From a virus (lineage: Duplodnaviria; Heunggongvirae; Uroviricota; Caudoviricetes), in IMG/VR virus record IMGVR_UViG_3300010261_000005, positions 1 through 32,133 of that record: DNA of 32,133 nucleotides. One strand, 5' to 3'. How positions within the stretch are numbered: position 1 is the stretch's first letter; each line of letters begins with the position of its first letter. The translations under genes and the position numbers were made by a program. The notes under the pieces were generated by a model. The model did not search any database. It saw nothing but the letters and a program-made list of their open reading frames with translations, and had not been told where the DNA came from. This document shows positions 5,175 to 29,976 of this stretch, piece by piece.

Positions 5175-5258
5175 TTAATTTCGATTATTTTTCCCGGATG
5201 GAAAATTCTTAGAAACCGATCACATACAGCTGCATTTATTAAGGTTATCATCCGTTTC

Positions 5259-5345
5259 GCTGAAAAACATAACCCATAAAATGCTAGCTGTACCAGGAAC
5301 CACCTCCTTAGCCTGTGTAATCTCCCTTACACGGGCTTATTTTTT
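5259..5345 (+). ncRNA. cyaR: CyaR (RyeE) Hfq-dependent small RNA
   Basis: Sequence gctgaaaaacataacccataaaatgctagctgtaccaggaaccacctccttagcctgtgtaatctcccttacacgggcttatttttt matches the E. coli CyaR sequence as I recall it. Ends in a terminator hairpin (cctgtgtaa / ttacacggg) plus T6. A -10-like TATCAT lies about 8 nt upstream of the 5' end, and a TCACA CRP half-site at about 5220..5224. Confidence 0.8.
5319..5345. other. P2 attachment core (prophage/chromosome junction, locI-type) within the 3' end of cyaR
   Basis: aatctcccttacacgggcttatttttt is the reverse complement of the 27-nt P2 att core AAAAAATAAGCCCGTGTAAGGGAGATT as I recall it. It lies between chromosomal cyaR and phage ogr, the expected junction for a P2 prophage. 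Confidence 0.65.
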
Positions 5346-22607: not shown

Positions 22608-23351
22608 TTAACTGGCTTTCTTTTTCGGGCGTCCACGTTTTGCCGGTGTCGCACTCCGGGTCTTACGCGGGGCGCGGGTGGCCGCTTTTGGCTGCGGCTC
22701 CGGCTTCGGTTTCAGCTCCCGCTCCAGTCGTTCAATCTCTTTTTTGACGCCTGCCTGACAGTCGAGCTGTGTCGCACGTTGCAGATGCGCCAGCGCACCT
22801 GCGGCATCACCAGCGTCACGCAGAAACAGACCGGTGATTTTGTGCAGCTTTGCGCGCACTTCATCAGGCATGTCAGCCGTGGCGGTCAGTTCAAGGGTCT
22901 CCGTCAGCAGGCGGGTATCCACAGACTCACCGGCAGCGTGAGCACGCATGGCCGCGAGCGCCACCTCCTCGGTGAACATGTACGGCGGGGTGCGGCGGTG
23001 TTTACCCGGCATGGTCAGACCGTACTTCAGGGCATAACGGGCAATCTCCAGCGCACCGGCAATATCGCCGGTATCCAGACGCCACAGCATGACCGTCATC
23101 AGAATGTCATCCTGTGCGCCTTTGCCCTGCTCCAGCACGCCGTTCACCCACGGCAACCAGAACGGCAGCAGTTCGCGCTTTTTCGCGGCCTTCAGCTCTT
23201 TTGAATAAATCGCTTTCAGTGTGCGCTGGTCTGCGGCGAGCTTAACCAGCATCTGCTCATAGACAGTTGCATGTCGCAGCGGGGCGGCTTCCCGCTGCGC
23301 GGTCATCGCTGCCGAGACCCGCATCATGTGGCGCTGTGCGGGACTCGTCAT
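22608..23351 (-). CDS. M: Terminase small (endonuclease) subunit M
   Basis: 247 aa, P2 gpM length; basic C-terminal tail (RKTRSATPAKRGRPKKKAS). Confidence 0.9.
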   Translation of the reverse strand: MTSPAQRHMMRVSAAMTAQREAAPLRHATVYEQMLVKLAADQRTLKAIYSKELKAAKKRELLPFWLPWVNGVLEQGKGAQDDILMTVMLWRLDTGDIAGALEIARYALKYGLTMPGKHRRTPPYMFTEEVALAAMRAHAAGESVDTRLLTETLELTATADMPDEVRAKLHKITGLFLRDAGDAAGALAHLQRATQLDCQAGVKKEIERLERELKPKPEPQPKAATRAPRKTRSATPAKRGRPKKKAS

Positions 23352-25341: not shown

Positions 25342-25514
25342 TGTCAGGAGTCCTGAATAGTGATTAGAGGAGTCACATGTCGGCATCAGTTTCCCGACGA
25401 TGCGCATCCTCCGCCATCAGTCCCGGATGGCTTATCACTGACACAACAGCACCTTAGCGAATCGCGGGGCGCGACTCAGTAGCCTTGCCGTGTATTCATC
25501 ACGGCGAGGTATTC
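25342..25514. promoter_or_regulatory. Divergent late promoter region (P_O leftward, P_P rightward), presumed Ogr-dependent
   Basis: 173-bp non-coding gap between divergently transcribed O and P, as in P2. I could not locate an exact TGT-N12-ACA activator dyad by eye, so this is positional inference only. Confidence 0.4.
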
Positions 25515-27287
25515 ATGACCATCACCACAGACACCACTCTTTTACACGACCCGCGTCGTCAGGCGGCGCTGCTGTACTGGCAGGGGTTTTCCGTGCCGCA
25601 GATTGCCGCCATGTTGCAGATGAAACGCCCGACGGTGCAGAGCTGGAAACAGCGCGACGGCTGGGACAGTGTTGCCCCCATCAGCCGTGTCGAAATGAGT
25701 CTGGAAGCGCGGCTGACCCGGCTCATCATCAAACCGCAGAAAACCGGCGGTGACTTCAAGGAAATTGACCTGCTCGGACGCCAGATTGAACGACTGGCAC
25801 GGGTAAACCGCTACAGCCAGACCGGCAACGAGGCAGACCTTAATCCGAACATCGCTAACCGCAACAAAGGCGGGCGTCGCAAACCGAAAAAGAATTTTTT
25901 CAGCGACGAGGCCATCGAAAAGCTGGAGCAGATTTTCTTTGAGCAGTCTTTCGAATATCAGTTGCACTGGTATCGCGCCGGGCTTGAGCACCGCATCCGC
26001 GATATCCTGAAATCCCGCCAGATTGGCGCGACGTTTTATTTTTCCCGCGAGGCGCTGCTGCGCGCCCTGAAAACCGGTCATAACCAGATTTTTCTGTCGG
26101 CCAGTAAAACGCAGGCGTATGTGTTCCGCGAATACATCATCGCCTTTGCCCGGCTGGTTGACGTTGACCTGACCGGTGACCCGATTGTCCTGGGCAATAA
26201 CGGCGCAAAACTGATTTTTCTCGGCACCAACTCCAACACCGCACAGAGCCATAACGGCGACCTGTACGTCGACGAGATTTTCTGGATCCCGAATTTTCAG
26301 GTACTGCGTAAGGTGGCATCAGGTATGGCCTCACAGAGTCACCTGCGCTCGACCTATTTCTCCACCCCGTCCACGCTGGCGCACGACGCCTACCCGTTCT
26401 GGTCGGGTGAACTGTTCAACCGGGGACGCGCCAGCGCCGCCGAACGCGTGGAAATCGACGTCAGTCATAACGCCCTTGCCGGAGGTCTTCTCTGTGCGGA
26501 CGGCCAGTGGCGGCAGATTGTCACCATTGAGGATGCCCTGAAAGGCGGCTGCACGCTGTTCGACATTGAGCAGCTCAAACGTGAAAACAGCGCCGACGAT
26601 TTTAAAAACCTGTTCATGTGTGAATTTGTTGACGACAAGGCGTCGGTGTTCCCGTTCGAGGAGCTGCAACGCTGCATGGTCGACACGCTGGAAGAATGGG
26701 AAGACTATGCGCCGTTTGCCGCCAATCCGTTCGGCTCCCGCCCGGTATGGATTGGTTACGACCCGTCACACCGTGGCGACAGCGCCGGATGCGTGGTACT
26801 GGCACCGCCGGTGGTGGCCGGTGGCAAATTCAGAATACTTGAGCGTCACCAGTGGAAAGGTATGGACTTTGCCACTCAGGCGGAATCCATCCGCAAACTC
26901 ACCGAAAAATACAACGTCGAATACATCGGTATTGATGCCACCGGCCTCGGTGTCGGCGTGTTCCAGCTCGTGCGCTCGTTCTATCCCGCCGCACGCGACA
27001 TCCGCTACACGCCGGAAATGAAAACCGCAATGGTGCTCAAGGCAAAAGACGTTATCCGCCGAGGCTGTCTGGAATATGACGTCAGCGCCACCGACATCAC
27101 CAGCTCGTTTATGGCTATCCGCAAGACCATGACCAGCAGCGGACGCAGTGCCACCTATGAGGCCAGCCGCAGCGAGGAAGCCAGCCACGCCGACCTCGCC
27201 TGGGCGACCATGCATGCCCTGTTAAATGAGCCACTCACCGCCGGTATCAGCACCCCGCTGACATCCACCATTCTGGAGTTTTACTGA
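25515..27287 (+). CDS. P: Terminase large (ATPase) subunit P
   Basis: 590 aa from MTITTDTTLLHDPRRQAALLYWQGFSVPQIAAM... (P2 gpP length), GAGGT RBS; the track ORF start at 25485 is an extension. Confidence 0.9.
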   Translation: MTITTDTTLLHDPRRQAALLYWQGFSVPQIAAMLQMKRPTVQSWKQRDGWDSVAPISRVEMSLEARLTRLIIKPQKTGGDFKEIDLLGRQIERLARVNRYSQTGNEADLNPNIANRNKGGRRKPKKNFFSDEAIEKLEQIFFEQSFEYQLHWYRAGLEHRIRDILKSRQIGATFYFSREALLRALKTGHNQIFLSASKTQAYVFREYIIAFARLVDVDLTGDPIVLGNNGAKLIFLGTNSNTAQSHNGDLYVDEIFWIPNFQVLRKVASGMASQSHLRSTYFSTPSTLAHDAYPFWSGELFNRGRASAAERVEIDVSHNALAGGLLCADGQWRQIVTIEDALKGGCTLFDIEQLKRENSADDFKNLFMCEFVDDKASVFPFEELQRCMVDTLEEWEDYAPFAANPFGSRPVWIGYDPSHRGDSAGCVVLAPPVVAGGKFRILERHQWKGMDFATQAESIRKLTEKYNVEYIGIDATGLGVGVFQLVRSFYPAARDIRYTPEMKTAMVLKAKDVIRRGCLEYDVSATDITSSFMAIRKTMTSSGRSATYEASRSEEASHADLAWATMHALLNEPLTAGISTPLTSTILEFY

Positions 27288-28321
27288 TGAGCAAGAAAAA
27301 AGGGAAAACACCGCGACCTGCGGCAAAAAAAATGACTGCCAGCGCCCCGAAAATGGAGGCATTCACCTTTGGTGAGCCGGTGCCGGTACTCGACCGCCGT
27401 GACATTCTGGATTACGTCGAGTGCATCAGTAACGGCAGATGGTATGAACCGCCGGTCAGCTTTACCGGTCTGGCAAAAAGCCTGCGTGCTGCCGTGCATC
27501 ACAGCTCCCCGATTTACGTCAAACGCAATATTCTGGCCTCGACATTTATCCCGCATCCGTGGCTTTCCCAGCAGGATTTCAGCCGCTTTGTGCTGGATTT
27601 TCTGGTGTTCGGTAATGCGTTTCTGGAAAAGCGTTACAGCACCACCGGTAAGGTCATCAGACTGGAAACCTCACCGGCAAAATATACCCGCCGTGGTGTG
27701 GAAGAGGATGTTTACTGGTGGGTGCCGTCCTTCAACGAGCCGACAGCCTTCGCGCCCGGCTCCGTGTTTCACCTGCTGGAGCCGGATATTAATCAGGAGC
27801 TGTACGGCCTGCCGGAATATCTCAGCGCCCTTAACTCTGCCTGGCTGAATGAGTCAGCCACGCTGTTCCGCCGCAAGTATTACGAAAATGGCGCACATGC
27901 CGGATACATCATGTACGTCACCGATGCCGTGCAGGACCGCAACGATATCGAAATGCTTCGCGAAAACATGGTTAAGTCGAAAGGCCGCAATAACTTTAAA
28001 AATCTGTTTCTCTATGCCCCACAGGGGAAAGCCGACGGCATTAAAATTATCCCGCTCAGTGAAGTGGCAACGAAGGACGATTTTTTTAATATCAAAAAAG
28101 CCAGCGCCGCTGACCTGCTGGACGCGCACCGCATCCCCTTTCAGTTGATGGGGGGCAAGCCGGAGAACGTCGGGTCGCTGGGTGATATTGAAAAAGTGGC
28201 AAAGGTCTTTGTCCGCAATGAGCTTATCCCGTTACAGGACAGGATTCGGGAAATAAACGGCTGGCTCGGTCAGGAAGTCATCCGCTTTAAAAACTACTCA
28301 CTGGACACTGACAACGACTGA
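27287..28321 (+). CDS. Q: Portal (capsid vertex) protein Q
   Basis: 344 aa, P2 gpQ length; ATG overlaps the P stop. Confidence 0.9.
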   Translation: MSKKKGKTPRPAAKKMTASAPKMEAFTFGEPVPVLDRRDILDYVECISNGRWYEPPVSFTGLAKSLRAAVHHSSPIYVKRNILASTFIPHPWLSQQDFSRFVLDFLVFGNAFLEKRYSTTGKVIRLETSPAKYTRRGVEEDVYWWVPSFNEPTAFAPGSVFHLLEPDINQELYGLPEYLSALNSAWLNESATLFRRKYYENGAHAGYIMYVTDAVQDRNDIEMLRENMVKSKGRNNFKNLFLYAPQGKADGIKIIPLSEVATKDDFFNIKKASAADLLDAHRIPFQLMGGKPENVGSLGDIEKVAKVFVRNELIPLQDRIREINGWLGQEVIRFKNYSLDTDND

Positions 28322-28325
28322 ACAT

Positions 28326-28348
28326 CGCCGCCTGCGGGCGGCTTTTTT
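28326..28348 (+). terminator. Rho-independent terminator after Q
   Basis: CGCCGCC-tgcg-GGCGGC followed by TTTTTT, 5 nt after the Q stop. Confidence 0.65.
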
Positions 28349-28432
28349 ACACCCTCACATGCTCACCACCGCACAAAACACCCCGCAGACACACCAACGC
28401 CCCGGCGCACAATCCAAACGCCGTCACGACGC

Positions 28433-28461
28433 GCTGAGACGCTGAGACGCTGAGACGCTGA
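28433..28461. repeat. Tandem 8-bp direct repeat (GCTGAGAC x3 plus partial) adjacent to cos
   Basis: gctgagacgctgagacgctgagacgctga read directly from the sequence. Confidence 0.8.
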
Positions 28462-28493
28462 AAAAATAAAATCAGCACCACCGCCAGCGCGCA

Positions 28494-28512
28494 GTGCTTT
28501 CCCCGCCTCGCC
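28494..28512. other. cos site (19-nt cohesive end sequence)
   Basis: gtgctttccccgcctcgcc is the reverse complement of GGCGAGGCGGGGAAAGCAC, which I recall as the P2 cohesive end; located just beyond Q as in P2. Confidence 0.65.
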
Positions 28513-28653
28513 CGCCCGCTTCATGGGGCGGTTTTAATGCAGGTGCATCATCCCCCCGGCAAGCGCCTGTTCTGGTGCTCGCTGTCAAAAGATATATTTG
28601 AAAATGAATGCAAATTTATGCACCTAATGCAGGCGAGGCTAAAAAGAACATCT

Positions 28654-29976
28654 TTAGTTTGTTTTTTTAACTCCACTGTATTCCGCTATCATCCTCTCAA
28701 CCGCTGGAAGCAACTCAGCAGGAACGCAAATAGACCTATCTGCCTTTCCAACATCTTTTGGCGTTTTGTAAGTACCATTATAATTAAGGACGCATTCTTT
28801 AAGAATTTCAAAAAGAGAAACAATAGGGTCCACGCCATAGCTATCAATAAACTTTCGATAGCTATCATTATCAGATAACGATGAAATATCTCCATGAACA
28901 AACTTACACCTAAGCTCATAGATTATTCCTATTTTTGAATCAATATCAATAATTTTCGCCGCATCTCTGCAAACACCGCCAATAATTGAATTTTTATTAC
29001 CATTATTGGTTCCATACATAGCATCCAATGCTATAAATTGATTCAAAAACCTTTCACGTTTGTCATCCCTCCACCCGTGCGCTATAAAGGAAAGAGCAGA
29101 CAACATCCTTTTATCAGGTGATGAAAGTATTTTTGTAAGTATCGCCAAGGCTGAATCCGTTATATTTAAATTATATACAGACGGAATATTCACCCGAAAC
29201 TCACTTTCATGATATTTCCCGACACCAAAAGACTCAACTAGATTATTAACAGCAACTCGATTAATCGCAAAAGGATTATCAACCGCAAGACATAAAGCTC
29301 CAAACAAACTATCAAACATTTTCACCGCTTTATCCTCTGATGAAGCATATGCCACCACCAAGCAGGATTTTGACTGTCGAAAATATTTCCCAATTGGTTT
29401 ATGCCGCATATATTCATCATCATAAAAATCAACAGGAACCTTGATGTCAGTTTTGTCTTTAATATCAGAAAGTAATTCCACCCCTAGCCCCGGGCCATAT
29501 AAAAATAAATTTTCTCTAAGCTCAAGCTTCCCATCAAAGCCAGCACACCCAAGATTATAAATATACGGACAGGATTTTATTCGTGAAAGCATATAATACT
29601 TAAACATCTCACTAAGATTTTTTCTATGAACTTGCGTTATAATATCATCAACACAAATCTTATCAGGATTAAGCGACAGAAAATCAGCATCAATGCGATT
29701 GAAGGCTTCAGAACAAAAACCTAACAATAATCTTTTCGCATTGTGAAGGTCACTTATACCTAATTGGGGGCCATATGCTTTTAATAACCTACTAGCACAT
29801 TTTGCAATCTCCTCATCATCATATGCAAGCCAAAAAACAAAATCTTCTAATGCTTTACCGACTTGGATACAAGGCTGCTCCTTACCATGACTATAAAAAA
29901 AACTTTTGCATAATTTGTTTATCATGCCATTAGAGAACGCAACCTTCATAGATACTTCATCCCTTAACGCACTCAT
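28654..29976 (-). CDS. Cargo protein at the P2 tin/old variable locus: 440-aa protein of unknown function with C-terminal Rx4H (HEPN-like) motif; candidate anti-phage defence protein
   Basis: Long ORF in strongly AT-rich DNA between the A stop (30060) and cos, co-directional with A (tin-like orientation); AAGGA RBS upstream of ATG 29976. Residues 356..361 RCKFVH fit the HEPN Rx4-6H signature (coords about 28894..28911). No resemblance to P2 tin or old recognised. Confidence 0.75.
   Translation of the reverse strand: MSALRDEVSMKVAFSNGMINKLCKSFFYSHGKEQPCIQVGKALEDFVFWLAYDDEEIAKCASRLLKAYGPQLGISDLHNAKRLLLGFCSEAFNRIDADFLSLNPDKICVDDIITQVHRKNLSEMFKYYMLSRIKSCPYIYNLGCAGFDGKLELRENLFLYGPGLGVELLSDIKDKTDIKVPVDFYDDEYMRHKPIGKYFRQSKSCLVVAYASSEDKAVKMFDSLFGALCLAVDNPFAINRVAVNNLVESFGVGKYHESEFRVNIPSVYNLNITDSALAILTKILSSPDKRMLSALSFIAHGWRDDKRERFLNQFIALDAMYGTNNGNKNSIIGGVCRDAAKIIDIDSKIGIIYELRCKFVHGDISSLSDNDSYRKFIDSYGVDPIVSLFEILKECVLNYNGTYKTPKDVGKADRSICVPAELLPAVERMIAEYSGVKKTN

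Follow-up and report, generated by a model that had tools for sequence, protein, structure and literature searches.

What is the stretch of DNA between the portal gene Q and the cargo gene of this P2-like virus, and which of its repeats take part in DNA packaging? The sequence analysed here (the window) is 32,133 nt long, and the stretch in question spans positions 28322-28653. A first-pass annotation had described it as a cos region with a strong terminator, a tandem repeat of GCTGAGAC, a 19-nt cos sequence and a GC hairpin, and had proposed that the tandem repeats could bind the terminase. Our analysis makes it very probable that an integrated P2-like prophage of E. coli has its cos (DNA-packaging) site here and that the 3.6-copy octamers in it are a slipped-strand expansion, probably a neutral one.

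Identity and placement of the cos site

The window was aligned with the cos regions of phages P2 and 186, the check that the first-pass annotation had called for. Positions 28310-28512 are collinear with the reverse complement of P2 positions 1-200, and the terminator and the 19-mer are identical in the two sequences. The reference P2 record (NC_001895) annotates cosL at 1-19, tQ at 160-181, and Q at 187-1221. Across the cut, the right end of P2, cgcccgcttcacggggcggttttaatgca, agrees with window positions 28513-28541 at all bases but one. Phage 186 shares the core, and its 19-mer differs at two positions (ATGC...CCACGCC, as in PSP3). There were 74 matching phage records, and those deposited as linear molecules from cos start at the base equivalent to 28512.

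The placement is also that of P2-type phages. The portal gene Q (27287-28321, plus strand) encodes 344 aa with the Pfam Phage_portal domain and is 99-100% identical to Q of P2-type loci. The cargo gene follows at 28654-29976, and a gpA gene (Phage_GPA) runs from 30060 to the window end, which truncates it. Both terminase genes are in the window. The small subunit, a gpM homologue that would act in trans, is encoded at 22608-23351 on the minus strand (247 aa, PF05944 Phage_term_smal, E = 3e-48), and a sequence search found no solved homologue of it. The large subunit, a gpP homologue likewise acting in trans, is encoded at 25485-27287 on the plus strand and contains Terminase_6N, Terminase_6C, and Terminase_5/HTH_23. 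Its start is probably slightly downstream of the listed TTG because the homologue in E. coli KE50 has 590 aa. The helix-turn-helix of gpP (Terminase_5/HTH_23, residues 22-78) is N-terminal, ahead of the ATPase and nuclease domains, and therefore either gpP or gpM could read DNA motifs. The window also encodes the capsid proteins N and O. With the identical 19-nt cohesive-end sequence, the 55-bp core, the position between Q and the cargo gene and A, and the presence of M and P, the assignment of the region to cos is correct and is already known biology. The locus is an ordinary P2-type cos between the portal gene and the cargo gene.

The cargo gene forms the right border of the region and belongs to the cos-adjacent hotspot. 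It is a 440-aa ORF on the minus strand with a GC content of 0.29-0.39, and it is transcribed toward cos. Its product had no Pfam or PADLOC match. A co-located 440-aa homologue in E. coli KE50 (WP_032190067.1) is named "HEPN domain-containing protein" in RefSeq.

A CyaR/RyeE sRNA gene was found at 5257-5342 on the plus strand (Rfam, 100.7 bits). Therefore about the first 5.3 kb of the window are host chromosome, and the prophage appears to adjoin cyaR. The virus is an integrated prophage, and its cos is internal, as expected. A search of genome contigs with the core pattern gave 14 matches, mostly random-looking, and three were in enterobacterial contigs. The literature that we searched offered nothing usable on the direction of packaging.

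The tQ terminator and the cos core

On the left, the cos intergenic region is bounded by the stop codon of Q, and five bases past this codon starts tQ (28327-28348, plus strand), the predicted rho-independent terminator of the P-Q operon. Its stem GCCGCC-tgcg-GGCGGC (28327-28342) has six G-C pairs and a 4-nt loop and is followed by T6 (28343-28348), so that by sequence tQ is a G+C-rich stem-loop with a U tract 3' of an operon, as a rho-independent terminator is. The RNA has a dG of -14.4 kcal/mol (z = -3.7). The strong terminator that had been claimed here was thus confirmed by the terminator scan, by its fold energy, and by base-for-base identity to the annotated tQ of P2. The octamers are separated from tQ by a spacer (28349-28432) that is rich in C and A and poor in G and T on the plus strand, with a GC skew of about -0.41 and an AT skew of up to +0.66. 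Its length and sequence differ among P2-type phages. Speculatively, the spacer as RNA would resemble a Rho-loading (rut-like) tract.

The 19-bp staggered-cut segment cosN (28494-28512) reads GTGCTTTCCCCGCCTCGCC and is the exact reverse complement of P2 cosL 1-19, GGCGAGGCGGGGAAAGCAC, the cohesive-end sequence quoted for P2 (PMC3931495). The 19-nt cos sequence that had been placed at these positions is borne out by this identity. The ends of P2 DNA are 19-nt 5' ends (PMC3931495, PMC5694545), and we infer that the top strand is nicked at 28493/28494 and the bottom strand at 28512/28513. Read from the sequence, both predicted nicks follow AGCGSGCR (top, cAGCGCGCA^G; bottom, aAGCGGGCG^G).

Around cosN, the columns of an alignment of 118 unique helper and satellite sites are near-invariant over 55 bp. 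This core (28487-28541) consists of GCGCGCA, the 19-mer, and CGCCCGCTTCATGGGGCGGTTTTAATGCA, and its consensus is GCGCGCA, the 19-mer, and yGCCCGCTTnnnGGGnCGGTTTTAATGCA. Apart from the ATGCA array described below, it is the only block common to P2 and P4. A 55-bp core common to P2-like phages and P4 has been described (PMC5694545, PMC3931495, PMC2231350, all citing Ziermann and Calendar 1990; also PMC9594776).

The core contains an inverted repeat, CCGCCC-N8-GGGCGG (28512-28531), followed by TTTT (28532-28535). The first-pass annotation had the sequence of this GC hairpin, CCGCCC-gcttcatg-GGGCGG, right, and its coordinates (28510-28529) need to be moved two bases to the right. As a conserved structure, the hairpin was rejected. 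Its fold energy (dG -13.6 kcal/mol, z = -1.05) is ordinary for its composition, and mismatches are frequent and never compensated: among the 118 unique sites, one pair is a C.T mismatch in 42 (36%) and another is T.G in 48, while a double change occurs in none. The inverted repeat is conserved as sequence and not as structure, and it is part of the core. Both predicted nicks come after one and the same octamer, AGCGSGCR, and the right-hand nicking half-site is therefore the left arm of the "hairpin".

The inverted repeat and its TTTT (28512-28535) might instead be a terminator that backs up tQ and blocks transcription across cos into the cargo region. The terminator scan does flag 28512-28535 on the plus strand, the stem has six G-C pairs with the energy given above, and the TTTT is highly conserved. 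However, this energy is indistinguishable from that of shuffled sequences, there are only four T, and the C.T mismatch stands in over one third of the sites with no compensatory change in any. Moreover, the repeat is conserved in P4, where transcription comes from the other side, and its left arm doubles as a nicking half-site. We consider a second terminator very unlikely and take the repeat as part of the conserved cos core.

Copy number variation of the octamer array

The octamer array (28433-28461, plus strand) consists of three head-to-tail copies of GCTGAGAC and then GCTGA. TRF called it at 28432-28461 (period 8, 3.8 copies, 100% match, score 60) and ranked it first among the window's tandem repeats, and its three GCTGAGAC matches are the only ones in the 32 kb. 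The roughly three and a half copies reported earlier for 28433-28461 are therefore real and amount to 3.6 copies. P2 has GCTGAGACGCTGA at this place, i.e. 1.6 copies.

Alleles were counted by blastn with a 121-nt query (28380-28500) against complete E. coli genomes, in which 1,559 records matched. The copy number was taken from the aligned length (105 nt for 1.6 copies, 113 nt for 2.6, 121 nt for 3.6, and 129 nt for 4.6), and two of these matches were confirmed by reading the sequence. On identical 92-nt flanks there were 1.6 copies in at least 41 records, 2.6 in 15, 3.6 in 3, and 4.6 in 1. The 4.6-copy allele is that of E. coli KE50, which carries the same cargo gene as the window. A cos identical to that of the window is present in E. 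coli 98206, CH4804, and JNEC-KY204. At most 36 records fell in the identity bands possible for expanded alleles, so that these make up at most about 1-2% of the 1,559 E. coli arms.

Among the 50 P2-type helper loci that we compared, four have expanded arrays, namely the window and three loci chosen for carrying expansions. The remaining 46 comprise 31 with the C variant, 14 with the G variant in 1.6 copies, and one in which the motif is absent. The C variant is the non-repeating GCTCAGAC, and one of the 31 loci has GCTCAGGC. An IMG/VR-wide scan for at least 2.6 copies found one P2-like contig only (L125, 3.6 copies). Two IMG/VR loci, L003 and L016, have the same right arm and cargo as the window but a single C-variant copy.

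Perfect head-to-tail units whose number varies between identical flanks are what replication slippage produces at a VNTR. The octamer array is a conserved flank motif in a rare form expanded by strand slippage, and it has the pattern of a slippage-prone microsatellite. In the course that we propose, a C-to-G change would make GCTCAGACGCTGA a perfect 1.6-copy repeat, which could then gain or lose units. Since units are added inside the array, the conserved -45 position keeps a full copy, and we expect cos to function as before. Judged from these alleles, the extra copies are probably neutral, though they may have a modest effect on the efficiency of packaging.

The earlier proposal was that the tandem GCTGAGAC copies are extra terminase-binding sites selected for better cos recognition or packaging. 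The octamer unit does equal the conserved -45 motif described below, other cos and pac phages are known to have terminase sites in repeats (for example, lambda cosB), and the 3.6-copy allele is present in several unrelated strains and in one 33.6-kb IMG/VR contig. Against this, laboratory phage P2 works with 1.6 copies, most relatives carry the non-repeat variant, and P4 is packaged without the Q-side arm. The expanded alleles are rare and stepwise (1.6/2.6/3.6/4.6) on identical flanks, which is typical of neutral slippage, and a period of 8 bp would put successive copies on different faces of the helix. Selection for extra binding sites is thus a doubtful explanation with little probability, and slippage is preferred. 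What stands of the proposal is that the unit coincides with a conserved motif; the view that its tandem repetition belongs to the cos architecture is not supported.

The same alleles bear on the coding capacity of the interval from Q to cos. A small minus-strand protein could be encoded there, as ORFs of 53 aa (28363-28524) and 44 aa (28347-28481) are present and RefSeq lists a 61-aa hypothetical protein over the equivalent stretch of KE50 (L126, 3968-4153), as do several phage records. However, natural alleles that differ by 8 or 16 bp within the small ORF shift its frame, the ORF crosses the cos cut site, and the interval has no Rfam family either. A coding or known-RNA reading of the interval was rejected on these grounds, and such a protein is hardly credible. 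From the 8- and 16-bp alleles we argue that the public hypothetical-protein CDS over this interval and the cut site is an annotation artefact.

The GCTSAGRC motif and the A/T-rich tract

In the Q-side arm no motif is better conserved than GCTSAGRC, with which the octamer unit coincides, and the cos-proximal full copy (28449-28456) occupies the conserved -45 position of this motif. Within 300 bp on either side of cos in 112 unique loci, GCTSAGRC occurred 99 times in forward and 3 times in reverse orientation, clustered around -45. In most helper loci of the P2-like and 186-like kinds its start is at -45 or -44, and its orientation is strictly fixed. It is kept at this position in P2-type, 186-type, and two further helper types despite differing surroundings, and an A/T-rich block follows in all of them. 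Because the unit is a conserved, orientation-specific motif, a protein-binding role of one copy is plausible, and the single-copy motif is probably meaningful as judged by its conservation.

The exact motif is missing in 13 of the 40 non-P2-type helpers, which have degenerate versions only. GCTSAGRC was not found in the Erwinia and Ralstonia relatives examined. In L108, an IMG/VR locus of P2 type whose Q is 99% identical, a 13-bp deletion of GCTGA and the A/T tract moves the octamer to -32; its left arm is either that of a defective cos or a sign that the spacing is tolerant. Given L108 and the 13 helpers without an exact copy, the motif is therefore not universal.

The A/T tract of the window, aaaaaataaaat (28461-28472), lies between the octamer and the GC-rich nick-proximal block. 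It has the same position in P2-type, 186-type, and other helper types, and its sequence differs among them. A/T tracts are about 20 bp outside each nick. We also considered the left arm as an imperfect palindrome or cruciform centred on this tract. In the window this arm folds with -26 kcal/mol (z = -3.3), yet RNAalifold on 24 diverse helper arms found no conserved structure, and this candidate was rejected.

P4 and the P4-like satellites have no homology to the helpers left of GCGCGCR, because their own cargo hotspot begins there. In 17 of 20 of these satellites GCTCAGRC is found on the other side, at +42 on the psu side and in the same orientation, and these include divergent satellites with other bases next to the motif. 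P4 itself (L128) and the P4-like loci L017, L026, L047, L091, and L106 are among them. In three divergent satellite-like loci (L026, L071, L106), GCTCAGRC is present on both sides of cosN. The match between the helper motif and the P4 motif spans 12 of 13 bases (gacNcGCTCAGAC), for which a rough post-hoc estimate of the probability by chance is a few per thousand.

The ATGCA array and the palindrome at +25

The region contains a second set of repeats, absent from the first-pass annotation and shared by helpers and satellites. A direct ATGCA array (28608-28631, plus strand) has copies starting at 28608, 28618, and 28627, i.e. from +96 and about one helical turn apart. It is the only closely spaced ATGCA cluster in the 32 kb. 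A further ATGCA is at +25, where the window has the palindrome ATGCAggTGCAT (28537-28548, +25 to +36). The right arms of helpers share this layout: ATGCA at +25, usually as the palindromic ATGCAnnTGCAT (28537-28548 in the window), then a spacer of about 60 bp that is constant in length and unrelated in sequence, and then two to four direct ATGCA copies. By eye, the spacer holds a semi-conserved palindrome CCAGnnCTGG (0.4-1.0 bits), of which the window has the weak form CCTGttCTGG (28566-28575).

All 71 unique helper right arms have the ATGCA at +25, and 52 of them have the TGCAT half as well; the columns of the palindrome have an information content of 1.2-2.0 bits. Statistics on the array come from a non-redundant set of 57 helper right arms whose spacers share less than 70% identity. 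At least one copy is present in 56 of these and at least two in 49. The first copy is at +96 to +98 in 46 of 56 arms, and 49 of 71 intervals between copies are 10 bp. ATGCA occurs 127 times in +85 to +140 vs twice in +36 to +84, twice in +141 to +166, and never in the left arms; chance would give about 3. P2, P4, 186, PSP3, divergent satellites, Klebsiella phages, Erwinia phage ENT90, and two Ralstonia phages carry the array as well; loci with both the +96 array and the +25 element include those of P2 (L001/L002) and P4 (L128) and L144, L147, L148, L151, and L154. At the right end of phiCTX (L152) there are CTGCR repeats at positions comparable to those of the P2 ATGCA elements, and HP1 (L153) has its own ATTTTCCGTGG repeats at about +4, +36, and +100. 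Such own repeats at equivalent places are as expected if the repeats co-evolved with the terminase.

Short repeats at a fixed distance from the cut that are conserved across phages with one type of terminase, as in an array of the lambda cosB/R-site type, are thus found in the ATGCA array. The octamer array does not have this character because only one of its copies is conserved. On this comparison the ATGCA array together with ATGCAnnTGCAT is the better candidate for a terminase-binding element than the octamers.

A different function of the array, as the binding site of a regulator or as a recombination anchor at the inner edge of the cargo hotspot rather than as a packaging element, has to be weighed. 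The array sits exactly where homology between different cargo alleles resumes; in P2 its third copy overlaps the -35 region of the old promoter, and in P4 a terminator-like hairpin downstream of psu has a stem made of two copies. However, the distance from cosN is fixed at +96 whatever the identity or orientation of the cargo, and satellites as well as Erwinia and Ralstonia phages have retained the array amid unrelated neighbours. The 32-kb window has no such array elsewhere, and phiCTX and HP1 have repeats of their own at the same place. We therefore consider a regulatory or recombination function unlikely and favour a role in packaging.

Comparison with known cos sites and a possible mechanism of docking

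The site resembles P2 cos most closely in its identical 19-mer, identical tQ, and same terminase genes, and the order of elements is also the same (Q, tQ, C/A-rich spacer, octamer, A/T tract, GC block, cosN, inverted repeat, TTTTAATGCA, and the ATGCA array at +96). The two differ in the octamers (1.6 copies in P2 and 3.6 in the window), in the lengths of the spacers, and in the +25 palindrome, which lacks the TGCAT half in P2. In addition, old and tin of P2 are transcribed away from cos, whereas the single 440-aa gene of the window is transcribed toward it. The Eganvirus phages 186 and PSP3 have the same core, GCTCAGAC at -45, an A/T tract, ATGCAgtTGCAT, and three ATGCA copies from +96. Their octamer is followed by GATAAT and not GCTGA, so there is no repeat to expand. 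Unlike the window, 186 has an annotated terminator, t95b, which lies outside the ATGCA array.

The cos site of phage lambda is organised as cosQ-cosN-cosB with R sites and an IHF site, and cosB contains repeated sites for the small terminase subunit. The P2-type site is similar to it, as lambda is generally known, in having a staggered-nick site with partial two-fold symmetry and distant short repeats that could dock the small terminase. There is no sequence similarity between the two, the overhangs are 19 nt in the P2 type vs 12 nt in lambda, and no IHF site like that of lambda cos was identified in the P2-type site here. The substrates also differ, being a concatemer for lambda and a circular monomer for the P2 type (PMC2231350). 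P4 (NC_001609) and the P4-like satellites, with the identical 19-mer and core and the ATGCA array at +96, are packaged by the same terminase as their helper (PMC9122126). They differ from the window in that the Q-side arm is replaced by the satellite cargo hotspot right after GCGCGCR and in that GCTCAGRC is on the psu side.

Closed circles are the packaging substrate (PMC2231350), and we propose that after excision and replication the terminase (gpM and gpP) would recognise cos on circular monomers. It would nick 3' of the two AGCGSGCR half-sites, which are related by two-fold symmetry, and so generate the 19-nt 5' overhangs of P2. Docking would most likely occur via the core, the ATGCAnnTGCAT element at +25, and the helically phased ATGCA array at +96 to +120, by analogy to the cosB repeats of lambda. 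The core and the ATGCA elements are favoured for this role because they are conserved in every DNA that this terminase family packages. GCTSAGRC at -45 on the Q side and the adjacent A/T tract may form an accessory element of the helper clade.

Implications for packaging by P2-like phages and satellites

Which DNA enters a P2-type capsid is decided by the cos site; among the DNA packaged in this way is that of P4-like satellites and of engineered P4/P2 cosmids for antimicrobial delivery. Published work treats cos as the 55-bp core, yet flanks beyond the core raise the transduction of P4 cosmids more than 1000-fold (PMC9594776). None of the accessible papers, a coverage that does not extend to the deletion analysis of Ziermann and Calendar (1990), describes the ATGCA array, ATGCAnnTGCAT, or GCTSAGRC. 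The claim made earlier for the octamer array is deflated by our results, as the array varies in length in a way that looks neutral, within a P2 cos that is ordinary in other respects.

We tentatively suggest, as a possibility that we rate somewhat below even, that the functional cos of the P2 family exceeds the 55-bp core. The ATGCA array at +96 to +120 and ATGCAnnTGCAT at +25 would then be where the terminase docks in helpers and satellites alike, from enterobacteria to Ralstonia, and would also form the inner boundary of the cos-adjacent defence hotspot, and GCTSAGRC would be an accessory element that helpers have on the Q side and satellites on the psu side. The comparative map offers candidates for the flank effects, namely the -45 octamer, the A/T tract, the +25 palindrome, and the +96 ATGCA array. 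The map likewise sets the point from which the variable hotspot of defence genes can start. The ATGCA array and the switch of the GCTSAGRC motif from one side of cos to the other merit experimental follow-up.
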